A stretch of 64,000 nucleotides of DNA from an uncultured Actinomycetota bacterium (GCA_963733635.1 CAVTEH010000003.1:352574-416573), one strand, 5' to 3'. Positions 34,748 to 47,682 are shown, counted from the stretch's first letter. Notes: generated by a model from the sequence alone, not told the origin. A program made the numbers and translations.

Positions 34748-35957
34748 ATGCGAGCGGCACCGTTCCTGCGACGGGTCTTCGAGCCGATCATGCGGATCGG
34801 CGAGGTCGAGGGCGAGCCGGAGGCGAAACGAGGCGGTCGCCGCGTCTTCTTGGTGGCGTTCGTCGTCGCGACGGTCCTGACGATCCCGCAGATCGTCGCC
34901 GACCTCACCGCCGGCTACACGTGGGTCGGTCTCACCAGCCTCACCCTCACCGTGGTCCCGATCGGCATCTTGCTCGCGATGCGCCGGTGGCCGCGACGGT
35001 TCGACCTGTTGCTGGCGTTGATGTTCACATGCATCACCGTCGGCCAGCTCGCCGAGACCGCGTTGTTCGGCGGCCTGCTCGAGTCCGGCTTGGTCGTGAT
35101 GTTCGGCCTCGCGATCGCGCTCTCGGCACTGCTGGCGTCCGGCGTCAGGGCCGCGATCGCTTGGTTCCTTGTCTTCGTCGGCTCGGTGGGGTTCGCGGTG
35201 GTGACCCCAAGCTCCTGGCAGCGATACACGCTGCGTGACCAGACCGCCGACGCGGCGTTCAACCTGATCGCGACCGCCGTCGTGACCCTCGCGATCGTCG
35301 GGTACTTCGTGAAGCAGCGCGACCGGTTCCAGCAGCGATCCGACGACCTGCTCCACAACATCCTTCCGGATGCGATCGTCGTCCGCCTCAAGGATGGAGC
35401 GGCCACGATCGCCGACGACGTGCCATCGGCATCGGTCCTGTTCGCCGATGTCGCCGACTTCACGCCGATGTCGGCGACGATCTCGCCGGCGGCAACTGGT
35501 CGGGCTCCTCGACGAGGTCTTCTCGGCGTTCGATCGGTTCGTCGACGAGCTCGGGCTCGAGAAGATCAAGACGATCGGCGACGCGTACATGGTGGCCTCG
35601 GGTGTGCCGGTGCCACGCGAGGACCACGCCGAAGCGATCGTGGAACTGGCGATCCGGATCCGGGACCACGTCGCCACCACGACCTTCGGCGGCCGACAGC
35701 TCCAGATGCGGATCGGGATCGCGTCGGGACCGGTCACCGCGGGGATCATCGGGACGCACAAGTTCGCCTACGACCTGTGGGGCGACACGGTCAACACGGC
35801 GAGCCGGATGGAGTCGAGCGGGCTCCCAGGCAAGGTCCAGCTCGCGCCCTCGACCTACGAGCTGATCCGGGAGCGTTACGCCTGCGAATCGCGCGACTCG
35901 GTACAGATCAAGGGGAAGGCGCCGATGACGACGTACCTCCTTCCCGACTCGAGCTGA
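34748..35957 (+). CDS. Membrane-anchored class III adenylate cyclase, 1-nt insertion about 35490
   Basis: Six hydrophobic helices then LLHNILPDAIVVRL...ASVLFADVADFTPMSATISPA, continuing in the second frame LVGLLDEVFSAFD...KIKTIGDAYMVASG...GIIGTHKFAYDLWGDTVNTASRMES. Confidence 0.75.
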
Positions 35958-35964
35958 GGCGATC

Positions 35965-36283
35965 AGCAGTCGACGACGCTGCGGAGCGCCTCGCAGATCC
36001 TCGTGATCGCGGCGCACGCCGAGTGCCCCGATCCGCCGAAGCAGGGCGGATTTCGCCACGGTCTCGACGTTGTCGAGCGACGCCACGCTCTCGACGGGTA
36101 ACCCCTCGTCGCCGCCCAGGGGGACCTCCGTCGGGATGCCCCGCACCGTCGTCGTGACCGGCGCGACGACCAGGCGACGGAGCACCGGGATCGCCCGCGC
36201 CCGCGTCAGCACCAGGTATCGGCGCGCGGCGAGCGGTCCGGAAGCTCACCCCACCAGATCTCGAGGTGCCCTGGCTCAGCCAC
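35965..36283 (-). CDS. mazF: MazF/PemK-family toxin, about 2 frameshifts
   Basis: GTG start overlapping the antitoxin stop (GTGGCTGA). GHLEIWWGELPD / RRYLVLTRARAIPVLRRLVVAPVTTTVRGIPTEVPL...SVASLDNVETVAKSALLRRIG / ICEALRSVVDC* in three frames. Confidence 0.55.
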
Positions 36284-37932: not shown

Positions 37933-38838
37933 GACATGCCGACCATCTTCGTCGCGACCGAGGATGGCCTCTCCAGGTTCGACGGCGACGGCCGTGTGCT
38001 CGACGTCGCGCATACCGGGCGGTCCGTGACGGCGCTCGGCCGCATGGGCGCCGACGTCTGGGCGATCGTCGATGCGGCCGAACTCTGGCATGCGACGCAG
38101 GCGGGCTGGACGCACGTCACCGATCTCGAGGGCCTGCGGGCAACGTGCGTCGCGGGGATCGGAGGCGACGTTTTCGTCGGCACGTCGAAGGCGCGCCTGT
38201 TCCGTCTCGACGGAGCGACGCTCGAGCCCGTCCCCGCGTTCGACGCCGCGGAGGGCCGTGAGGCCTGGTACACCCCCTGGGGCGGGCCGCCCGACACGCG
38301 CTCGATGGCGAACTGGGACGAGGACATCTACGTGAACGTGCATGTCGGCGGCATCCTGCGAGCCGACGACGGCGGTGGTACATGGACGCCGACGATCGAC
38401 ATCGACGCCGATGTGCACCAGGTCACGACCTCCGAGGGCATGGTGCTCGCGGCGTGCGCCGGTGGGCTCGCCGTGAGCACCGACTGTGGCAGTACGTGGA
38501 CGTATCGCACCGACGGGCTCGACGCTCGCTACTCGCGAGCGGTCGCCGTCTGTGGCGACGATGTGCTGGTGTCGGCATCGAACGGACCTCGAGGGGGGAA
38601 CGCCGCCGTGTATCGAGGAAGGCTCAGCGCCGGCACGTTCGAGCGGTGCGTCGCGGGGCTGCCTTCGTCGTTCGATGACAACATCGACAGCTACTGCTTG
38701 GACGCCCTGCCCGATGGCTCGGTCGCCGCGTTCGGCACGTCCGCTGGGTACATCTACCGCTCGAGGGATCAGGGTGCGCGGTGGGATGAGCTTGCATCGG
38801 ATATGGGGCCAGTCCTGCGCGTGCTCGTGATGCCCTGA
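37933..38838 (+). CDS. Beta-propeller (BNR/sialidase-like or YVTN-like repeat) protein
   Basis: MPTIFVATEDGLSRFDGDG..., with repeated G-x-W-T / S-x-D-x-G-x-T-W-like units (DDGGGTWTPT; STDCGSTWTY; SRDQGARWDE). Confidence 0.5.
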   Translation, partial: DMPTIFVATEDGLSRFDGDGRVLDVAHTGRSVTALGRMGADVWAIVDAAELWHATQAGWTHVTDLEGLRATCVAGIGGDVFVGTSKARLFRLDGATLEPVPAFDAAEGREAWYTPWGGPPDTRSMANWDEDIYVNVHVGGILRADDGGGTWTPTIDIDADVHQVTTSEGMVLAACAGGLAVSTDCGSTWTYRTDGLDARYSRAVAVCGDDVLVSASNGPRGGNAAVYRGRLSAGTFERCVAGLPSSFDDNIDSYCLDALPDGSVAAFGTSAGYIYRSRDQGARWDELASDMGPVLRVLVMP

Positions 38839-38929
38839 GCCCGACGGCATGCGGCGGGGTCGTCACAGAGCCCGGCTCCTTTCGCCATGCGGCATGTGAG
38901 CCGATGCTGGCCAGGCGCTCTTGGTGGAT

Positions 38930-39602
38930 GGACCGCCCAGATATATGCCTGGGTTACGACCGGGTCGTCCACGTCGCGCTCGGGCGTCCTGAAGATCAAC
39001 GTCGCGATGAGCGAGCTGCCCCACTTCACCGCGAACCTGGGCACCGACCTGCAGGACCACTACACCGGCTCGGTCGAGCTGTGCCTGTCGCGCGAGTCGG
39101 CCGAGCGCGCATTACAGGACGCGCACCTGGGGCACCGGGCGGCGATCGGCTCGTTCGTCGACGGCGGGATCCCCACCACGATCGACCCCGACCTGGCGCC
39201 GAAGGGCGTGCAGGTGTTCTCGATGTTCAGCCAATGGGTGCCGCATGAGTGGAGCGAGGAGCCGCACCGCGAGGAGCCGAGGCCTACCGACCGTGCGATC
39301 GACGGCTACACGGCGCTGGCGCCCAACGTCATGGAGCAGGAGCTGGGCCTGATCGGCGGCAACATCTTCCACGGCGAGCTCACTGTGGATCAGCTGTTCC
39401 ACATGCGACCCTCGCCTGGCTTCGCGGACTATCGCACTCCCAACCCCGCCTCTACTACGGGCCGAGCGCCGCCCACGCCGGCGGCGGGTCAACGACATCC
39501 CAGGCTGGCAAGCGTACCGTGCGGCAAAGGGGGATCAGCAGCGAGGGAGACGTGGTTCGCGTCACTGAGACAGCGATGCGCAAGGCAGCATCGGTTTCTT
39601 GA
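38930..39602 (+). pseudogene. 3' fragment of a CrtI/phytoene-desaturase-family FAD oxidoreductase (N-terminal FAD domain absent; internal frameshift)
   Basis: FTANLGTDLQDHYTGSVELCLSRES...FSQWVPHEW...IFHGELTVDQLFHMRPSPGFADYRTP, then GLYYGPSAAHAGGGS...AGKRTV in a second frame. No N-terminal Rossmann region is encoded upstream. Confidence 0.5.
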
Positions 39603-39869
39603 TCCGGGTGTCAGCAGTTGAGTCGCGCCAACCTCTGATCGAGCCGCGGGCGCATCAACCGTGTGTCTGGCGGGCGATGCGCAGGCAACCCCGTGGCGTG
39701 TCGTCGTGACACCCGGTGGACACCACTGCGGGTCATCCGCGGAACGCGCTTCTGGACCCCACCACCCTCGACGAACGTCGGATCGGAATCGCCGGCCCGG
39801 ACACGGTCAAGCTGGTCTTGCATCGGGTTCGGAACGGTCGCGCACGCGTTGCCCTCTCCCGGATGAGCG

Positions 39870-40481
39870 TCAGCCTCGGCGGCCGAGTCGTCGCACCAGC
39901 GCCAGCACGACCGCAGCATCCTCAGGGCTCAGGCCCTCTATTGCTTGTTGAAGTTCGTCCTGGACCGAAGAGTGCTCGGCGTCGTCCATGCCGGAGCTGT
40001 CGAGGGGGGGTTCGTACGAGTCTCGTTCCTCATCGAGCTGGGCGCCCGCGAGCGCCCTCCCTGCGTGGAACCAGCGCCTTGCGGTAGGGGAGGGGGCAGC
40101 ATCGCTGTAGCGCTGGATCATCATCTCGAGATCCGCTTCCGGTGCGGGCGCGCCACGATCCACCATCGGTCCGCCGGTGATCTGGGCCCGGTAAGCCTCG
40201 GCCTCTCGCATCAACTCGCTCGGGGAGAGCCCCAGAGCCTCCGCGATTGCCAGGAACGATCGAGACCCGGGACGACCTCGACCGGTCTCGATGTCGGACA
40301 GGTAGGCGTAGGAGACGCCGGCGGCCTCGGCGAGGTCTTTCCGTCCGAGGCCCATCGCCGTTCGCGCCACCTTGATCGCGCGGCCGAGGCCCTCGTAGAA
40401 CGAGGGCTCCTCCTTGCGGAGCAGTGGTTTCGCAGGTTTGCGCCGCTTCGAGGAGGCGCCCACGCTCGATCCCCGTGTCAT
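39870..40481 (-). CDS. XRE-family HTH transcriptional regulator
   Basis: LGRAIKVARTAMGLGRKDLAEAAGVSYAYLSDIETGRGRP. Confidence 0.8.
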   Translation of the reverse strand: MTRGSSVGASSKRRKPAKPLLRKEEPSFYEGLGRAIKVARTAMGLGRKDLAEAAGVSYAYLSDIETGRGRPGSRSFLAIAEALGLSPSELMREAEAYRAQITGGPMVDRGAPAPEADLEMMIQRYSDAAPSPTARRWFHAGRALAGAQLDEERDSYEPPLDSSGMDDAEHSSVQDELQQAIEGLSPEDAAVVLALVRRLGRRG

Positions 40482-40517
40482 ACCCGAACCCTATCATGTG
40501 CATACGCGTGAACAGGG

Positions 40518-40552
40518 ATATTCGTGTAAAAACCGAATATTGCTGCTATACT
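40518..40552. promoter_or_regulatory. AT-rich promoter/operator: inverted repeat ATATTCG-N9-CGAATAT followed by TATACT -10-like hexamer
   Basis: Read directly; it is the lowest-GC stretch in the window. Divergent between the XRE gene and the Cys-domain operon. GGAAGGAGG lies further downstream. Confidence 0.4.
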
Positions 40553-40650
40553 CCCAGTTCTTAGGGTTCATGAGTCCCGCGGATCACCCGCACGAACTGG
40601 AAGGAGGTCGGCCCTGTGAACACTCTCTTCCCCTCTCGGTGGGCAGACCG

Positions 40651-40802
40651 ATGAACATCGGTGAGCCGGAGCGCGAGTTCGAGATCGTTCCGATGACAGT
40701 GCCCGTGCCGGAGGTGATCCCCCTCGCCGAACCGACCCCCGGCGGCGTGCCCGCCGAGCCCGCCCTCGAGCCGGTTCCGCCTCCGGCGGGACGGCGTCGG
40801 TG
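40651..40802 (+). CDS. Small Pro-rich hypothetical protein, translationally coupled to the next gene (GTGA overlap)
   Basis: MNIGEPEREFEIVPMTVPVPEVIPLAEPTPGGVPAEPALEPVPPPAGRRR. Confidence 0.3.
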
Positions 40803-42020
40803 AGTGTCGACGTCTCGATCGAGCCCATCACCGGCTGGCGCCTGTGGGGCCTGTCGACGAACCCGCCCGGCGCGCCGGTGCTGCTGCCCGTGGGCGCCGG
40901 GCTCGGCGAGTGGCCGGGGCGCAGGCGTTTCAAGGCTCGATGCACCGGCGACGGTCGGTTCGGACGCCGTCCGCTCGCCGACGAGCAGCACCTGAGTCCG
41001 TCGTTCGCGTGCACATGCGGCATCTACGCGAGCGCTTCGCTACACGATCTCATGTCGTCGACCCGAGCGCTCCCCGCCCTGAGCGTCGTCGGCACGGTCT
41101 CGATGTGGGGACGGACGATCGAGCATGAGCGCGGGTGGCGGTCGGAATACGCATATCCGGCGCGGCTCACCCTCGTCTGCGCCGAGTGCGTCCGATCCGG
41201 GTCGGGCGAGGGGAGGCCTGCCGCGCTCGCACTCGGCTTACACGGACGAAGCGCGAGCGGGCTCGTCGCGGTCTGTTCGGACCACAGCGGCATCGTCGCC
41301 GAGGAGGAGTCGTTCTCGCTGTTCGATCCGCAGGAGGTGCAAGGCCTGCTGCTCGACCGCTATGCAGTCGATCCCTTGCCGTTCGACGCCGTGCGTGACT
41401 TGTTCGAGCGGCCTCGCTCGTCCACTCCGCTGGCCCACCGAACCACGGCCGCAGCGGCGTCCGTCCGGCCGATCCGAGTGGCGATCCCACCTCCGCGTGC
41501 CCCGACCCCGACCCGGTCGCCCATCGCGCCGACGAGACAGCTGGGCCGCCCGAGCATCCCGCGACGCGTGGCGCGGAGGATCGGCAGGGTTATGTCGCTC
41601 ACGTTCAGCGCCTCACTTTTCATCGCGTTGTGCGTCTGGTCGCTGCAGTCGTGCGTTGTCACGGTGCCCGACTCCGATGCGGCGACGTCGTCGCCCGCGA
41701 TGGTCGTGGGATCGCCGGAGGTCACGCGGCCTTCGGCCGATGTGGCGGCCCGTCGGTCCCCCGATCGACAGGTGAGCGAGTTCCCCGACTTCGAGTTCGT
41801 CTGTGGCATCCCGCACGGCGGGTGGGTCGAACTCGTGTCGTGTTCGAGGCCGGCGAGACTGTTCGGGTTCGCCTCGTCGCCGCCCGATACAGATTGCCTC
41901 CGAGGCGACGTCGCGATGACCCGTCGGCACAACTACTCCATCTGCTGGCATTCCTTTGCTGGCCGGGTGGACCTCGTGCCACACCCCGCTGCCGCCGACC
42001 CATTCGAGGACGAGCGTTGA
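40800..42020 (+). CDS. Uncharacterized protein with conserved Cys-rich domain (paralog of the 45066-45585 domain), single internal TM helix, Cys-containing C-terminal region
   Basis: Intact 406-aa ORF from GTG. IEPITGWRLWGL...ARC...CTCGIYASAS...VVGTVSMWGRTIEHERGWRSEYAYPARLTLVCAEC...LLDRYAVDPLPFDAV. TM LTFSASLFIALCVWSLQSCVV. Confidence 0.6.
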   Translation: MSVDVSIEPITGWRLWGLSTNPPGAPVLLPVGAGLGEWPGRRRFKARCTGDGRFGRRPLADEQHLSPSFACTCGIYASASLHDLMSSTRALPALSVVGTVSMWGRTIEHERGWRSEYAYPARLTLVCAECVRSGSGEGRPAALALGLHGRSASGLVAVCSDHSGIVAEEESFSLFDPQEVQGLLLDRYAVDPLPFDAVRDLFERPRSSTPLAHRTTAAAASVRPIRVAIPPPRAPTPTRSPIAPTRQLGRPSIPRRVARRIGRVMSLTFSASLFIALCVWSLQSCVVTVPDSDAATSSPAMVVGSPEVTRPSADVAARRSPDRQVSEFPDFEFVCGIPHGGWVELVSCSRPARLFGFASSPPDTDCLRGDVAMTRRHNYSICWHSFAGRVDLVPHPAAADPFEDER

Positions 42021-42177
42021 GCAGGTTCGTGCGCGATGTGTGCGGCTGGAACGCGGCGACGGCGTGGCGGACCGGCGCATCTCTGGCGCAGTGCTCCCTG
42101 CAGGGATGCGTGTCACACCCACTCGATAGTATCTCCGGTGGGACCACTCGGTCGCCCCGCCCGCGTCGACGGAAGGG

Positions 42178-42617
42178 TGATCCAGTTGGAACCGCTTCGA
42201 GACCGATGCTTCGTGTGTCGCGAGCTGCTGGCCGTTCAGATCGTGGTGGATGAGGAGGGCTTCCCCGCGGGCCACCCCAAGCATGGTTTCGCCTTCTACC
42301 ACATCTGGATCGGGCGCTGCCCGATGGGGCATATGCAGGGGGAGCGATACGACCACGACTGCTTCAAGCCATGGGATCCCGATGAGCCGCCCGACGGCAA
42401 GGCGTGGTGCTCGTTCGATCCCGCCGAGTCCGAGGCACTGATCGCTTTGCTCCAGTCTCGCTGTGGTCGGTTGCTCGATGGCTCCTGCTCATGCTCCACG
42501 CACGAGGCGCTTCGGGCCGCGTTCCACGGTTTGCCGTATCGAACGGAAGGGTCGATCCCCGTCTCGCTCCGTATCCACGAGATCTATCCTCCCCGGATCT
42601 CCCTCGAACCCCGCTGA
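42178..42617 (+). CDS. Small Cys/His-rich hypothetical protein
   Basis: GTG after GGAAGG. CFVCRELL...GRCPMGH...DCFKPW...WCSFDP...SRCGRLLDGSCSCSTHEAL. Confidence 0.45.
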
Positions 42618-42633
42618 GCACTACGTCGGGAGC

Positions 42634-42984
42634 TCAGCAGGTCACATGCAGGATCGCGTTGGTGTCGTCGGGCGCTCGTTCCAGCTCCTCGATCGCCTGG
42701 GACGTCGGGAGGATCACCAGCTCGACACCCCTTCGCGTCGCTTCCTCGGCGACGTCCTCCATCACGGGCAAGGCCCCGGCGGCTCCGCTGCCGACGACCA
42801 GGCGATGACAGCTCCACGGGATGTCCTCCGCTGCGGAGAGGGGAGTGTGACCGTACCCCGATCGAAGTGACTTGGAAGGCCCCTTCCGGCGCTTCCGGAT
42901 GCGGCCCCCGTCGATCACGAGGTCATGCTCGTACGTCGTCCCCTCGACTTCGATGGATCCGAAGGCGAACCGCCCGAATTGCAT
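42634..42984 (-). CDS. Mth938-like domain protein (DUF498 family)
   Basis: MQFGRFAFGSIEVEGTTYEHDLVIDGG...LVVGSGAAGALPVMEDVAEEATRRGVELVILPTSQAIEELERAPDDTNAILHVTC. Confidence 0.6.
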   Translation of the reverse strand: MQFGRFAFGSIEVEGTTYEHDLVIDGGRIRKRRKGPSKSLRSGYGHTPLSAAEDIPWSCHRLVVGSGAAGALPVMEDVAEEATRRGVELVILPTSQAIEELERAPDDTNAILHVTC

Positions 42985-43028
42985 CTCGATGACGATCCTA
43001 CGCCTCCGCACCAGGCCGACGGGGGCCT

Positions 43029-43065
43029 GTTCCACTATCTGGAACTGAGTTCCACTATCTGGAAC
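43029..43065. promoter_or_regulatory. Two tandem copies of a palindromic operator GTTCCA-CTATC-TGGAAC separated by TGA
   Basis: Read directly: GTTCCACTATCTGGAAC TGA GTTCCACTATCTGGAAC. It lies in the divergent intergenic region between the Mth938-like and PPOX-like genes. Confidence 0.5.
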
Positions 43066-43134
43066 ACGTGGCCAGAAGCCCACTGGTTCGCAGTCCGGTC
43101 GGCGGTACCGACGCGGCGGTAGGCTACGTCCCTC

Positions 43135-43610
43135 GTGGCCACCTGGGCCGAGTTCGCGAACGCCGAGCCGGATCTGGCCGCCTTCGCCCGGGAGCGGATG
43201 GAGGGTCGGATCGTGTACCAGGCGACGCTCCGGCTCGACGGCGGGCCGCGCGTGCACCCGGTCTCTCCTTGGCTCGGGGCCGGGCTGCTGTGCGTCTCGT
43301 TCCGCGACACGAGCCCGAAGATGCACGAGGTGGCGCGCGACGCGCGCTACGCGTTGCACACCGCGCAGCCGTGGGAGGATCACGCCGGCGAGTACGGCGA
43401 GTTCATGGTGCGCGGATGGCTCGAACAGATCTCTCCGTCACACCCGGCGGTGACGGCGCGCCCCGGCCAGACGCCCTACGGGCTCGTCCACTACGCGTGC
43501 TCGATCGAGGAGGCGGTGGCGACGGAGTACTCCGACGACGAGATGCCCGTCTATCGACGGTGGAAGTCATCCCCGCGACACGACGGGGGGTGGACATCAG
43601 ATGTCCTGAG
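43135..43610 (+). CDS. Pyridoxamine-5'-phosphate-oxidase-like (PPOX/F420-class split-barrel) protein; stop probably masked by an indel in a G6 run (43585-43590)
   Basis: MATWAEFANAEPDLAAFARERMEGRIVYQATLRLDGGPRVHPVSPW...FMVRGWLEQI. The +1 frame after the G-run reaches a stop at about 43608. Otherwise the ORF overruns vapB. Confidence 0.55.
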
Positions 43611-43627
43611 AGCTAGCATCATGCATC

Positions 43628-43858
43628 ATGCCTCGGACGACGATCGACATCGATGCCCAGGTGCTGCGCGATCTCAAGGATCGGCAGGCGCGAGAGGGCA
43701 AGAGCCTCGGCCAGCTCGTGTCCGAGTTGGTCGCCGCAGGTCTTCGGGATGAGCCTGAGCCGCCGACCGAGCCCTTCACCTGGACGACGGCGAAGATGCG
43801 CGCACGCGTCGACCTCACCGACAAGGACGCTGTGTACCGCGCGCTCGACGAGCGATGA
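43628..43858 (+). CDS. vapB: VapB-type antitoxin
   Basis: MPRTTIDIDAQVLRDLKDRQAREGKSLGQLVSELV; 4-nt overlap with vapC. Confidence 0.7.
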   Translation: MPRTTIDIDAQVLRDLKDRQAREGKSLGQLVSELVAAGLRDEPEPPTEPFTWTTAKMRARVDLTDKDAVYRALDER

Positions 43859-44289
43859 GCGCAACGCTCGACGCGAACCTGCTGTTGTTCGCCTCCGACG
43901 AGTCGAGCCCGTTCCACGAACGGTCGAGCGCCTTCCTGGTTGGCGTCGCCGAAGGGCCCGAGATCGTCTACCTCTTCTGGCCGGTGCTCATGGCGTACCT
44001 GCGGATCGCGACACACGCCGGCATCTTCAAGTCCCCACTCGCTGCCGACGAAGCGATGGCGAACGTCGGATCTCTGTTGGCCCTGCCGCACGTGCAGAGC
44101 CCCGGTGAACAGGAGCGCTTCTGGCCGGCGTTTCGAACCGTTGCCGACGAGGCGACGGTGCGCGGCAACCTGGTCCCCGACGCGCACCTCGTGGCGCTGA
44201 TGCGGCAGAACGACGTTCCGACGATCTTCACCCACGATCGCGACTTCCGCCGTTTCGACGGCATCGAGGTGCGAGACCCGCTCGCCTGA
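43855..44289 (+). CDS. vapC: VapC PIN-domain toxin
   Basis: LDANLLLFASDESSPFHERS...FWPVLMAYLRIATH...LVPDAHLVALMRQNDVPTIFTHDRDFRRF. Confidence 0.75.
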   Translation: MSATLDANLLLFASDESSPFHERSSAFLVGVAEGPEIVYLFWPVLMAYLRIATHAGIFKSPLAADEAMANVGSLLALPHVQSPGEQERFWPAFRTVADEATVRGNLVPDAHLVALMRQNDVPTIFTHDRDFRRFDGIEVRDPLA

Positions 44290-44305
44290 ACCTTGTCCGT
44301 TCGGC

Positions 44306-45776
44306 GTGTCGGTGCCAGCCCGTAGTCTAGATGGTGCAGTCGCTCCACCCCCCTCGCGCGGCCCGCCGTGCGGAAAGGAGCTCCCCCTGGCTGCCGGTGA
44401 TTTGCCCCATCGACCGATCGTATGGCTCGACTCGGGGGCCCTGTGGGGCCTCGAGATCGAAGCCGATGCCGATGCCGATGGCTCGCTGCTCGAGCGAACC
44501 ATCCTCGGGGCACACTCGCTTCGGGCGGCCGTGGGGAACGCGCCGATCGTCTCGTTGGACGTTGCTCCAGCCTTGCTCGAACAGCCAGGGTTCCCACTCG
44601 AGGTCTCACGCATGCTTCGCAACCGCGCCGCTCGACCCCTCGGCGCTCATGCTCGAGCTGAACGAACGGACCCGCATCGACGATCTCGACACCGTGATCG
44701 AACAGATGCAGCAGCTCCGGGATCTGGGTGTGCGGCTGGCGGTCGACAACTTCGGCGAGGGGTTCGCGTCTCTCCAGTACGTGCGCCAACTGCCGGTCGA
44801 CGTCGTCAAGGTTGCGCCGTCGTTCGTGGCCGGAGTGTGCGGAGGGGGCGAGGCTGCCGCGCTTGTGTCGGCCACGCTCGAGCTGGCCTCGATCCTGGAA
44901 CTCGAGGCGATCGCGACCGGTATCGAGACCCCGGCGCAGGCTGAGGCCCTCCGCGGGATGGGATGCAGGCTCGGCCAAGGGCCGCTGTTCTTGCACGCCG
45001 CTGAGCCTGTGCGCTCAACGCGATCGAGGCCCGCCGCGCAGCCGAGGCCTGTCGAGCCGCCCCTCTCGATCGAGCCCGTGCTGGGTTGGCGGGTTTGGCG
45101 CCTGTATGAGAGCGATGCAAACGTCAGCCTCGGTTCGATGACGCGGCAGGACTTGTGGCCGCCGGGTGAACCGTTCCGTGCCCGCTGTTCCTTGGCCTCC
45201 CACGCCGGCCGCGTCCCTTCGGAGTCGTGTGGTTGCGGCATCTACGCGGCATCGACGCCCGAGGCGTTGGCGCGAGCTGCCGTGCTGTCCGGTTCGGTCG
45301 GCGTCGTGGGCGCCATCGCGATGTGGGGGACGGTGATCGAACACGATCGCGGCGCCCGGGCGCAGCTGGCCTACCCGGCGCGACTTCGGCTGGTCTGCTC
45401 CGTGTGTCTGGGCGAGGGTCGCGGCGCAGTTGACCCGTCGGTCGTGGTCGGATCGAGCACATCGCTGTCTCCACTCTGTTCCCGACATGCGATCGGTCAC
45501 GTTGGCCCGAGGAAACCGGCGGCCGACGTGCAGGCGGACTTGCTCTCGAGCTACGCGGTCGATCTGTTGCCGATCGAGCACGTATCGACCGCGCTGAGGT
45601 TTCCGACACTGCGGCGCGATCCGCGCGAGGTGGCTGATCAGGTCGCCGAGGCCGCCGTCGAGACCCTGAAGTTCGTCCTCAACGCGTTGCTGTTCCTCTG
45701 GACGATCTCCGGCTTCCTGTTCCTGGCCTTCTGGATCGTCGCGATACTCGCCGGCATGTTCCTTCCAGACAGCTAA
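44306..45776 (+). CDS. EAL-domain (c-di-GMP phosphodiesterase-like) protein fused to the conserved Cys-rich domain and a C-terminal TM anchor; one frameshift in the EAL domain about 44630
   Basis: EAL N-half HRPIVWLDSGALWGLEIE...LELNERT, and C-half GVRLAVDNFGEGFASLQYVRQLPVDVVKVAPSFV...GCRLGQGPLF. Then IEPVLGWRVWRL...ARC...CGCGIYAAS...VVGAIAMWGTVIEHDRGARAQLAYPARLRLVCSVC...LLSSYAVDLLPIEHV. Tail FVLNALLFLWTISGFLFLAFWIVAILAGMF. Confidence 0.6.
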
Positions 45777-45803
45777 CGAGGTGTTCAGGATTCGCTTCCG
45801 GTT

Positions 45804-45821
45804 GAGACAGTGGTCGGTCTC
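45804..45821. terminator. Short hairpin GAGAC-N8-GTCTC between convergent genes
   Basis: Read directly; lies between the + gene end (45776) and the TetR gene end (45871). Weak. Confidence 0.2.
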
Positions 45822-45870
45822 TCACCACAACGCGTGCATCAGATCAGTCGAGAGATCGATTCAGCTGAGA

Positions 45871-46611
45871 TCACGAGTTCCGACGCTCGATGAACGCCTC
45901 GACGCCGTCGAGCACCCTGGCCAGGCCGAACTCGAACGAGGCAAGCGCCTCAGCCAGGAAGTAGCCGCGTTCGTCGTTCGCCTGGTCCCACGCTCGCGAC
46001 ATCTCCGGACCCGAGAGCGTTGGGAAGCGAACCGGATCCCAGATCGTCTCGAGGACCGTCCCCACGCCGGCCCACCATTCCTCGTCGTCCATCGTGCCGG
46101 CATTCGGCGGGGTCCTCGCCTCGACGGCGAACCGTGCGGCGCCGCGCACGTATGACGAGATCAGGGTGAGCACCTCGGCCATCTCCTTTCCGGTCAGGCC
46201 GATGCCCGCGATCGCGGCCGCGGCTCGCTCGTAGGAGTCCAGGATGTTCGGTCCCAGGGGCACCCGCGTCCAGGGCACGTCCCCCATCCATCGATGTTGC
46301 TGATACAGGTCCCATTGGGCTCGCGCGATCGTCTCGAGCCGCTCGCGCCAGGTTGAGTGTTCCGGGAGCGAGACGTCGTGCTCGCCGATCACCCGGTCGT
46401 ACATCAGGTCGAGCAGGTCGCTCTTCGCCGGCACGTAGGTGTACAGGGTCATCGCGCCGACGCCCAGTCGCTCCGCGACGCGTCGCATCGAGATCGCGGC
46501 GAACCCCTCCTCATCCGCGAGCTCGATCGCGGCCGTCACGATCTCGTCGGTCGTGAGCCGCTGCTTGGGCCCGCGCTTGGGCGTTCGCTCGATGCGCCAG
46601 AGCAGGCGCAT
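45871..46611 (-). CDS. TetR/AcrR-family transcriptional regulator
   Basis: LTTDEIVTAAIELADEEGFAAISMRRVAERLGVGAMTLYTYV. Confidence 0.8.
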   Translation of the reverse strand: MRLLWRIERTPKRGPKQRLTTDEIVTAAIELADEEGFAAISMRRVAERLGVGAMTLYTYVPAKSDLLDLMYDRVIGEHDVSLPEHSTWRERLETIARAQWDLYQQHRWMGDVPWTRVPLGPNILDSYERAAAAIAGIGLTGKEMAEVLTLISSYVRGAARFAVEARTPPNAGTMDDEEWWAGVGTVLETIWDPVRFPTLSGPEMSRAWDQANDERGYFLAEALASFEFGLARVLDGVEAFIERRNS

Positions 46612-46739: not shown

Positions 46740-47682
46740 ATGACCGGAACCGACACCGTGGTCCAGGTCGAAGGGCTCCGGATGCGCTACGGAACCGTCG
46801 ATGTGCTCGACGGGGTCGCGTTCGGCGTGAGAGCCGGCGAGGTCGTCACGCTCCTGGGACCCAACGGCGCCGGCAAGACCACAACGATCGAGATCCTCGA
46901 AGGGTTCCGGGTGCGATCCGACGGTGAGGTCCGGTGCTCGGGGTCGATCCCGTCCAGGCCGACGAGGACTGGCGCGCCAGGGTCGGCGTCGTGCTGCAGT
47001 CCTGGCGCGATCATGCGCGCTGGTCGCCACGGGCCCTGCTCACTGACCTCGCGCCGCTACTACGAGCCGTACTCCGACGCCCGAGCGCGAGCGGCCCTAC
47101 GACGTCGAGGCGTTGATCGCGATGGTCGGGCTCGAGGCGCAGGCCGACCGGAAGATCCGCACGCTCTCGGGCGGGGAGCGCCGGCGGCTCGACGTCGCCG
47201 TCGGCATCGTGGGTCGGCCCGAGCTGCTGTTCCTGGACGAGCCGACCGCGGGGTTCGACCCGAAGGCCCGGCGGGAGTTCCACGCGCTGGTCCGAAGACT
47301 CGCCGACGAGGAAGGCACCACGATCCTGCTCACGACGCACGACCTCGATGAGGCCGAGCGCCTCGCCGATCGCATCCTGATCCTCGCAGGCGGCCGGATC
47401 GTGGCCGACGGGACCGCCGACGAGCTGGCCCGCTTGGTGACCCGCGACTCCCACGTTCGGTGGCGGCGCGACGGCGAGTCGTTCGAACGCTCGACGCCGG
47501 ACGCCGTCGGGTTCGTCCGCGACCTGCTGTCGTCGGCGCCGAACGGCGAGATCACCGACCTCGACGTGCGCCGGGCCACGCTCGAGGACACCTACCTCGC
47601 GATGGTGCAGCGGCATGAGAGCGGCGACACGAGCGAGGTCGCGACCGTGTTCGGGGGAGGAGACGACGGCGATGGATCCTAG
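46740..47682 (+). CDS. ABC transporter ATP-binding protein (ABC-2 exporter type), at least 3 frameshifts
   Basis: VEGLRMRYGTVDVLDGVAFGVRAGEVVTLLGPNGAGKTTTIEILEGF / LGVDPVQADEDWRARVGVVLQSW / LSGGERRRLDVAVGIVGRPELLFLDEPTAGFDP...TILLTTHDLDEAERLADRI. Confidence 0.7.

Follow-up and report, generated by a model that had tools for sequence, protein, structure and literature searches.

An unannotated protein domain with a probable ADP-ribosyltransferase-like fold, a putative integral zinc finger and a small-peptide partner gene in uncultured Actinomycetota

The ADP-ribosyltransferases (ARTs) are grouped in a Pfam clan that takes in DUF952, DUF2441, DarT, PTS_2-RNA and RES, and their defined clades bear a triad of residues on strands 1, 2 and 5, namely H-Y-[EDQ], H-H-h or R-[ST]-E (PMC7955679). 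The strand-2 element contains a Tyr in the PARPs (YFA) and a His in TRPT1 (HLA) (PMC7955679), and a diphtheria-toxin-like site has been described in BC2332 (PMC3024214). Actinobacteria are further known to possess kinase/PP2C/vWA triads, and the metal-ion-dependent adhesion sites (MIDAS) of vWA domains bind extended peptides (PMC7159879). Described here is a domain with a probable ART-like fold that is encoded twice in a 64,000-nucleotide stretch of DNA from an uncultured Actinomycetota bacterium (GCA_963733635.1, CAVTEH010000003.1:352574-416573; hereafter the window, with positions counted from its first nucleotide), once in an open reading frame (ORF A) that overlaps the gene of a 50-residue Pro-rich peptide, and once in ORF B, where it follows part of an EAL domain. 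The two genes had been singled out by an earlier inspection of the DNA without database searches, the sequence-only reading, which could place their shared Cys-rich region in no family.

The two ORFs are indeed paralogous. BLASTP and tblastn align residues 5-205 of ORF A (40812-41414) with residues 245-425 of ORF B (45063-45605) at 36% identity over ~200 residues and E=2e-28, far below the limit of 1e-3 that the sequence-only reading had set for its own refutation, and all the motifs it named are found in both copies in the alignment; on these two grounds the paralogy is real and far beyond chance. A tblastn search of the 64 kb with the domain returns exactly these two copies. ORF A has the extent first given for it (Table 1). 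The duplication that had been proposed stands as regards two paralogous copies but not as a recent event, since each copy has orthologues elsewhere that are closer to it than its partner in the window; a recent tandem duplication is ruled out, and the copies belong to two old subfamilies. Several other metagenome-assembled genomes (MAGs) encode a second, B-type paralogue a few kb or less from the main gene (L004 2300-3094, L037 1440-2483, L046 367-960 and, on the minus strand, L001 2497-3429; here and below, labels of the type L001 or L074 denote related loci, and those of the type P0001 or P0018 database proteins of the family). Loci with more than one copy are therefore common, and the window is no special case in this.

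No model in Pfam, NCBIfam, PHROGs or PADLOC recognizes the shared domain, whether either ORF or the isolated domain is scanned, and phmmer and profile searches of the PDB sequences give no match, the profile search returning none at E<=10. A Pfam or PHROGs family is likewise found in 0 of 20 tested members (10 distant cellular and 10 phage proteins), and each named member carries the label 'hypothetical', all of which bears out the view that the domain is unrecognised and its family undescribed. The named members are from MAGs of Actinomycetota or from metagenomes. When each species was represented by a single genome, a scan yielded 50 loci, every one in a MAG and almost every one with the label Actinomycetota or Actinomycetes, and the closest relatives come from soil MAGs assembled from long-read Nanopore data (PMC12313526). 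An exhaustive profile search, clustered at 50% identity, retrieved 8080 clusters at E<=1e-3, a count possibly inflated because the profile included the transmembrane (TM) helix and the C-terminal domain; at E<=1e-10 the number was 3278, and at E<=1e-30 it was 185. Close homologues of ORF A number only 17, and the B-type domain retrieves at least 144. Homologues of 365-390 residues mostly have the same parts as ORF A, namely the N-terminal domain (N-domain), a TM helix, a Pro-rich linker and a C-terminal domain of ~90 residues with four conserved Cys, and this architecture is common to 80 homologues. Short forms of ~243 residues consist of the N-domain and a TM tail, equivalent to ORF B minus its EAL part, and the distant members are soluble, stand-alone proteins of 190-260 residues. 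As a protein domain, the shared region is real, ancient and as yet unannotated.

Alignments of 131 close and 17 distant sequences agree on the conserved residues of this domain (ORF A numbering), comprising W13-R14-x-W16 on the first long strand, C71-x-C73-G-[IL]-[YH]76-A followed by a helix, [ML]-W103-G104-x-x-[IV]-E108-H109-x-x-G112-x-R114 spanning a long hairpin, and A-Y119-P120-x-R122-L-x-L-V-C127-x-x-C130 together with C159-x-x-H162. All of them, including R14, Y/H76, E108, H109, R114, Y119-P120 and R122, are invariant or conserved at >=90% in both alignments, and both copies of the window retain all of the conserved candidate-site residues. The conserved ligand set amounts to six Cys (C48, C71, C73, C127, C130 and C159) and two His (H109 and H162), in place of the five Cys plus His first counted; C127-x2-C130 and C159-x2-H162 are invariant, and C48, C71, C73 and H109 nearly so. 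From this pattern, the Cys6His2 set is probably a zinc finger holding two zinc ions.

The AlphaFold model of full-length ORF A has a predicted local distance difference test score (pLDDT) of 79, most of both globular domains scoring above 90, and the N-domain modelled alone from 131 sequences reaches a pLDDT of 87.3 and a predicted template modelling score (pTM) of 0.85. ART proteins make up ~46 of the 60 structural matches listed for the N-domain model, by the authors' count. They include Tpt1/KptA, BC2332, DarT from three species, CC0527 (which we take to be a DUF952 protein) and many PARPs and tankyrases; the pertussis-like, heat-labile, diphtheria and CARDS toxins, Scabin, pierisin and Arr; and the RES toxins MbcT and ParT, TreX/TreTu, SopF, OspC3, AcrF11 and ART2.2. 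The modelled fold resembles that of the ARTs, weakly, and an assignment to them is probable. The alternation of Tyr and His at position 76 parallels the Tyr of PARPs versus the His of TRPT1, and the GIYAS element with its helix is like the YFA of PARPs. A deaminase-like site of the HxE/PCxxC type was also considered and is ruled out, since the family conserves the order E-H and its predicted fold is rich in β-strands.

Five readings of the domain were weighed, not all of them mutually exclusive. The one tentatively favoured here, which falls somewhat short of being probable, is that of a new enzyme or switch that bears zinc, binds NAD and resembles the ARTs, with a membrane tether in ORF A. 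The domain would comprise an ART-fold β-core, the Cys6His2 finger and a short helical tail, and would bind nicotinamide adenine dinucleotide (NAD+) or a related nucleotide, either for transfer of ADP-ribose or as an NAD-dependent switch. Candidates for the pocket are R14, which sits on strand 1, Y/H76, which belongs to the strand-helix element CGIYA, and the pair E108-H109, found where the long hairpin has its tip. The domain of ORF A would form the cytoplasmic head of a protein that spans the membrane once, and because the predicted extracytoplasmic tail is a β-domain with four Cys of disulfide type, its activity may be coupled to an outside signal. The co-translated, acidic and Pro-rich peptide would be a conserved stoichiometric partner, whether inhibitor, adaptor or substrate, and the operon of the two genes is probably repressed by the divergently encoded XRE protein. 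ORF B would present a tail-anchored head with no ectodomain, fused to a shortened and presumably dead EAL domain. Neither the ART-like fold, nor the frameshift in ORF B, nor the small Pro-rich ORF as a conserved partner figured in the sequence-only reading.

Several observations weigh against an NAD-binding ART-like enzyme. The best Foldseek match of the model in the PDB has E=0.9, an hhalign comparison of the family profile with Escherichia coli KptA gives a probability of 0.05, and the database searches given above (Pfam, NCBIfam and PHROGs scans, the PDB profile search at E<=10) reveal no likeness to a known ART in sequence or profile. R14, Y76 and E108 are assigned to an NAD pocket by the order of the strands, not by superposition, and the candidate triad R-[Y/H]-E matches that of no defined ART clade. 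E108 closes a strand and is followed by a very short turn, unlike its counterpart in classical ARTs at the start of a strand, and is replaced in a few members (Val in P0016 and Gln in P0023). No macrodomain or other ADP-ribose eraser was seen adjoining the family, and about half of the loci are without a peptide gene.

Possible, if doubtful, is a non-catalytic zinc-finger or thiol module for sensing or binding, which would form the cytoplasmic output of a one-component TM signalling protein, laid out like the zinc-binding anti-sigma factors, and would sequester or release a partner, for which the peptide, the XRE protein and a vWA protein come into question. This reading draws on the layout of ORF A, in which the TM helix and Cys-containing C-terminal domain noted at the outset are borne out by hydropathy and by a confident AlphaFold model. 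The net charge is +6 before the helix and -2 after it, and by the positive-inside rule the head would be cytoplasmic and the four-Cys domain extracytoplasmic; the four Cys are conserved columns, and the domain is found in 19 loci and matches no library family. A regulator gene adjoins the operon in the A subfamily, as such a sensor would have it. However, the invariant Arg, Glu, Trp and Tyr of the β-core suit a pocket more than a scaffold, most members are soluble, stand-alone proteins of ~200-250 residues with no membrane part, no sigma factor gene adjoins the family and no HxxxCxxC motif is present, and the phage copies lack several Cys yet keep the core motifs. Just downstream of ORF A lies a Cys/His-rich ORF of 193 residues (42036-42617, with CFVC, CPMGH and CSCSTH), which matches no family and has no homologue in any related locus.

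The peptide gene, whose GTGA coupling to ORF A is confirmed at the position given in Table 1, is a real, conserved gene. Its product joins a conserved head, MNIGEPKxxxEIxPxxxPVPE, to a variable tail rich in Pro, Glu and Ala, and its divergence by codon position (0.30/0.23/0.40) is as in coding sequence. In about half of the examined loci, a peptide gene adjoins or overlaps the family gene on the same strand; it precedes that gene in the A subfamily and follows it in most of the rest. Such peptides also accompany distant stand-alone members ('MNVGKLARVIFIRPASEPVPEE' and 'MDIGRPQRIIEIEPASLPVPGP'). Pfam has no match for the 50-residue peptide, the genes for peptides of 41-71 residues carry neither a Pfam match nor a product name where gene calls existed, and a literature search for the motif found nothing. 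At L005 (1421-3241) an in-frame fusion joins the peptide to the N-terminus of the family domain, and in the near-identical L004 the frame of the peptide continues over the gene instead, so the fusion may be real or may be an artefact of long-read indels. At L055 (1897-7932), a member of 247 residues and its peptide directly follow a Tad/Flp pilus cluster (CpaE-like, T2SSE, two T2SSF, DUF4244 and TadE-like). Stand-alone members lacking a peptide gene (P0292-P0325 and others) often end in P-x-[YF]-x-P-[ST]-I-[RSH]-x-V-P-[VA]-[ED], the strict form of this motif being present in 46 of 117 such members, and the linker of ORF A keeps a similar motif, VRPIRVAIPPP (41454-41486). The tail YxPSIRVVPVE was considered as a fused copy of the peptide; as the hidden Markov model of the peptide gives no match to it (best E=2.8), its likeness to the peptide head stays a resemblance only.

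Divergent transcription from the XRE gene across an AT-rich operator, also part of the sequence-only reading, is upheld by the HTH_3 match and by a 169-nt spacer with a locally AT-rich stretch. The inverted repeat in this spacer has 12-nt arms that are 83% complementary, no match to the sigma-70 consensus is found in 40482..40650, and XRE homologues occur upstream of A-type genes only (L006, L037 and L046). The peptide and ORF A might be seen as a pair of toxin-antitoxin (TA) or phage-defence character, in which an ART-fold toxin (cf. DarT, ParT and MbcT) is neutralised by the acidic peptide. The 4-nt overlap of a small acidic gene with a larger ART-like one, the presence of the TA toxins DarT, MbcT and ParT among the best structural matches, the XRE regulator, the relatives on viral contigs and the setting among PIN, PemK and ribbon-helix-helix (RHH) genes would all suit such a pair. 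It is nonetheless improbable, as co-occurrence is not obligate where the peptide gene is missing at so many loci and at ORF B, many stand-alone copies stand in stable synteny with housekeeping-type genes (tryptophanase-like and K+ transporter-like genes, for example), and a membrane anchor with an ectodomain is atypical of TA toxins.

Nor are the surrounding TA genes conserved. A PIN/VapC gene identified by Pfam does lie directly upstream of ORF B, in agreement with the vapBC pair first described there, and a partial PemK gene, an RHH antitoxin gene and a MazE-like and PIN pair are nearby, but the BrnT/BrnA labels given to other genes are not reproduced by Pfam at E<=0.01. Recurrence of neighbours was judged across 53 related loci, and TA genes recur in none of them; vapBC, DUF498, PPOX-like, TetR and the 193-residue ORF are all ruled out as partners on this count. 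PADLOC scans give no match for either ORF, for a stand-alone member or for the conserved neighbours, and for the XRE protein only generic helix-turn-helix (HTH) matches. The non-recurrence and the PADLOC result mark the TA island as local scenery, and a TA or defence setting does not hold as a trait of the family.

Quite improbable is the idea that the peptide is itself the substrate, with its conserved head as leader and a hypervariable core modified by the domain, by ADP-ribosylation of Glu for example, in a scaffold-modification system or one akin to those of the ribosomally synthesized and post-translationally modified peptides (RiPPs). The division into conserved head and hypervariable tail is like that of leader and core, the linkage is tight in either gene order and includes one in-frame fusion, and there is precedent for an ART that modifies a ribosomal peptide (MicD, minviopeptin; PMC12912966). 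The tails, however, are low-complexity repeats of Pro, Glu and Ala with neither a Cys/Ser/Thr pattern nor a cleavage motif, genes for a protease, transporter or recognition element do not recur, and many members have no peptide.

ORF B is not the single ORF of 44306-45776 first described, as 44306 opens an ORF (44306..44944) in a different frame from that of the shared domain, which lies in 44331..45776. The product of this first frame is the N-terminal portion of an EAL domain of reduced length, a portion that the intact relatives P0021, P0023 and P0147 have as well. The two frames meet at a run of four C (44636-44639), and removal of one C from it restores an unbroken ORF of 489 residues (44306..45776) that aligns with intact P0021 and P0147; the database version, P0018, has 375 residues and starts at M107. 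Similar frame breaks are seen in the same genes of several relatives from Nanopore MAGs, and the break in the C run could be an assembly indel or could mark a true pseudogene. The EAL domain scores 110.7 bits in Pfam as written and 127.8 after the 1-nt repair, against a gathering cut-off of 31.3, and covers positions 110-234 of the 236-position profile as written, 64-234 when repaired and 71-233 in intact P0147. Since both the repaired ORF B and intact P0147 are shortened, the N-terminal region with the EAL motif is missing or unrecognisable across the subclade. Compared with the active EAL domain of MorA, DDFGTG has become DNFGEG (the second Asp replaced by Asn) and AEGVE has become ATGIE (Glu by Thr), and the relatives carry the same substitutions. 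The N-terminal EAL domain with DNFGEG that had been reported is upheld by the Pfam match and qualified by its incomplete, degenerate and frame-broken state, and the hydrophobic C-terminal tail anchor of ORF B (residues 445-476) is confirmed. To judge from these motifs, the EAL domain is a non-working phosphodiesterase and would be a receptor of cyclic di-GMP (c-di-GMP) at most; being N-terminally shortened and stripped of key catalytic residues, it makes the fusion say little on c-di-GMP turnover. That ORF B is a c-di-GMP signalling protein whose EAL domain degrades or senses the nucleotide and so controls the attached domain, as the sequence-only reading had it, is very doubtful, for despite a match well over the threshold and a fusion kept in several relatives, the first ~63 profile positions are missing, catalytic residues are replaced, the gene is frame-broken in the window and the fusion occurs in a handful of sequences among thousands, confined to a small subclade (P0018, P0020, P0021, P0023 and P0147/P0401).

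For the favoured ART-like enzyme or switch, the gene neighbourhoods of relatives offer possible partners. Full-length members are accompanied by a 4-TM protein X (14 loci), by a vWA-like lipoprotein Y bearing DxSxS (17 loci) and, in ~10 loci, by a DSP-like phosphatase that scores 28.6 bits against a Pfam threshold of 33.5, and a cytoplasmic vWA protein of 425-427 residues is encoded directly upstream of A-type genes in L004/L005 and of the intact EAL-fused type in L061/L062; none of the four is encoded in the 64-kb window. A conserved operon in L001, L011, L018, L026, L050 and L051 (L001 4133-7288, for instance) encodes the 4-TM protein (~365 residues), the vWA-like lipoprotein (~246 residues), the family protein and the peptide. 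In L004 (4517-7722), L005, L061 (2750-6220) and L062, the vWA gene lies directly upstream and the phosphatase gene directly downstream of the family gene, and the A type, with its peptide, and the intact EAL-fused type occupy the same slot. By analogy, the order of vWA, enzyme and phosphatase suggests a logic of writer, eraser and scaffold. A more ambitious proposal would make ORF A and ORF B founding members of an unrecognised ART clade, widespread in uncultured Actinomycetota and also present in phages, whose pocket would be of the type R-[Y/H]-E and whose Cys6His2 finger would be integral and bind two zinc ions. The clade would work with the peptide, vWA proteins and the DSP-like phosphatase as a reversible, membrane-coupled modification system of writer, eraser and scaffold; in this full form the proposal is unlikely. 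A β-propeller-like ORF upstream of the locus in the window (37936-38835) is 61% identical to a vWA-adjacent gene in L061 (1673-2575) and L062, in the opposite relative orientation, which suggests that the locus is a rearranged and reduced version of the L061/L062 cluster.

Beyond cellular genomes, a scan of viral contigs yielded 23 loci, with G+C contents of 31%-69% among the 20 examined. The viral homologues encode the β-core, often without the zinc ligands, and the phage copies lack several Cys and keep the WRxW, IHAFK and WGxVxEHxxGYR core. A tblastn search of 50,697 deposited phage genomes found no match to the domain of the window, and the same search with a phage member gave one marginal match in a Streptomyces phage. 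The viral genes sit in modules for DNA replication and nucleotide metabolism; on one viral contig of 31% G+C (L074 3146-5576), the homologue lies in the replication module right after genes for a nicotinamide phosphoribosyltransferase and a dCMP deaminase, a possible link to NAD metabolism from a single, anecdotal case. On a contig binned as Pseudomonadota (L053 816-1225), a peptide-like ORF ('ANIGEPMRRHHVIPLDHPIP...') directly precedes a weak match to the family, which reflects either a wider distribution or a binning error.

The window has a G+C content of ~68%, and Rfam finds no match in 39500-46500. Other genes of the region are frame-broken or truncated (46740-47682, 35460-36212, 34748-36157 and 38887-39621): an ABC ATPase is split over frames, one ORF matching positions 1-51 of the Pfam profile and a different ORF positions 90-137, the match of the PemK/MazF toxin is restricted to profile positions 38-93, and a cyclase-like ORF and an oxidoreductase-like fragment appear by eye to be out of frame. 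Either decay or indel errors would account for them.

Table 1. Positions and properties of the features described in the window.
Feature	Position	Strand	Remarks
XRE-family HTH regulator	39870..40481	-	Pfam HTH_3 E=3.9e-12; divergent from the peptide/ORF A operon
Divergent promoter/operator region, 169 nt	40482..40650	.	Locally AT-rich; inverted repeat 40513-40524 / 40534-40545
Small-peptide gene, 50 aa	40651..40803	+	Stop overlaps ORF A start by 4 nt (GTGA)
ORF A, 406 aa	40800..42020	+	Predicted cytoplasmic N-domain, Pro-rich linker, TM helix, predicted extracytoplasmic 4-Cys β-domain; identical to P0001
β-core of shared domain (probably ART-like), ORF A residues 8-125	40821..41174	+	WRxW (R14), CxCGIYA (Y76), MWGxxIEH (E108, H109)
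Putative CxxC...CxxH zinc-finger subdomain and helical tail (LLxxYAVDxLP), ORF A residues 127-205	41178..41414	+	
TM helix, ORF A residues 261-291, predicted N-in/C-out	41580..41672	+	Kyte-Doolittle windows >1.6; AlphaFold helix 253-285
C-terminal all-β domain with C335, C348, C366, C382	41784..42017	+	pLDDT 91-96, six strands; presumed extracytoplasmic
N-terminal part of EAL-fused gene	44306..44639	+	Frame differs from remainder; ORFs, alignment to P0021/P0023/P0147
ORF B as written, 481 aa maximum	44331..45776	+	EAL remnant, shared N-domain, hydrophobic tail
Degenerate EAL, C-terminal half (DNFGEG, KVA, ATGIE)	44619..44993	+	Pfam EAL E=9.6e-32
Second copy of shared domain, ORF B residues 245-425	45063..45605	+	R, Y, E-H and all eight Cys/His positions kept; BLASTP/tblastn, alignment
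C-terminal hydrophobic tail anchor, ORF B residues 445-476	45663..45758	+	Hydropathy; no ectodomain; same tail in 243-aa forms

The family, its linkage to the peptide and the lead on its fold are solid and testable, and the mechanism is a proposal. Direct results are the paralogy, the size of the family, its architecture and conserved residues, the peptide linkage, the ranking of fold matches and the degenerate state of the EAL domain; zinc binding, use of NAD, membrane topology and the parts played by the peptide and the XRE protein are inferred. Should the fold and pocket prove true, the domain would represent a large new branch of the ART superfamily, with thousands of sequence clusters and none of them annotated, from a bacterial lineage known only through soil metagenomes. 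The branch would be marked by an unusual zinc finger built into the domain, by a form coupled to the membrane and by a small peptide as its dedicated partner. It would also open a concrete and testable way into signalling or conflict that depends on NAD, in uncultured Actinomycetota as well as in their phages. Even a non-catalytic domain of this kind, invisible to Pfam, NCBIfam, PHROGs and PADLOC, merits the definition of a family.

Among described systems, the closest in fold are Tpt1/KptA (PTS_2-RNA) and DarT, with which the shared domain has no detectable similarity in sequence or profile. These enzymes present a His on strand 1 where the domain has the Arg of WRxW, and the domain differs further in its integrated Cys6His2 finger, in the membrane anchor of many members and in having no DarG-like macrodomain partner. 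The fold-level matches span many ARTs of the PARP and toxin types (H-Y-E and R-S-E clades), to which the domain compares through its CGIYAS element and helix, like YFA, and through the conserved Glu in its hairpin. The conserved Cys/His set with CxxC knuckles recalls B-box and zinc-ribbon fingers, but these are separate fingers, whereas C48, C71, C73 and H109 lie inside the β-core. Zinc-binding anti-sigma (ZAS) factors differ in their HxxxCxxC motif, which is not found in the family alignments, and in that the neighbour here encodes an XRE protein and no sigma factor. ORF B resembles the degenerate EAL receptors of LapD/FimX type in its EAL fold with lost catalytic residues on a membrane-associated protein, but its EAL domain is also N-terminally shortened (64-234) and frame-broken. 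The peptide may be compared with RiPP precursors through its pattern like leader and core, and no protease, transporter or recognition-element genes recur. The kinase/PP2C/vWA triads find a parallel in the relatives whose family gene lies between genes for a cytoplasmic vWA protein and a DSP-like phosphatase, or after that for a vWA-like lipoprotein, and the extended, acidic partner peptide may be compared to the extended peptides bound by vWA domains; unlike those triads, the central enzyme is no kinase, the phosphatase is DSP-like and the partners are not in the window. The integrated Cys6His2 finger, the WRxW motif and the peptide partner are unmatched in the ART families compared, and the shared domain probably represents a new branch of the ART superfamily, which would be a large one and which occurs in uncultured Actinomycetota and phages only.

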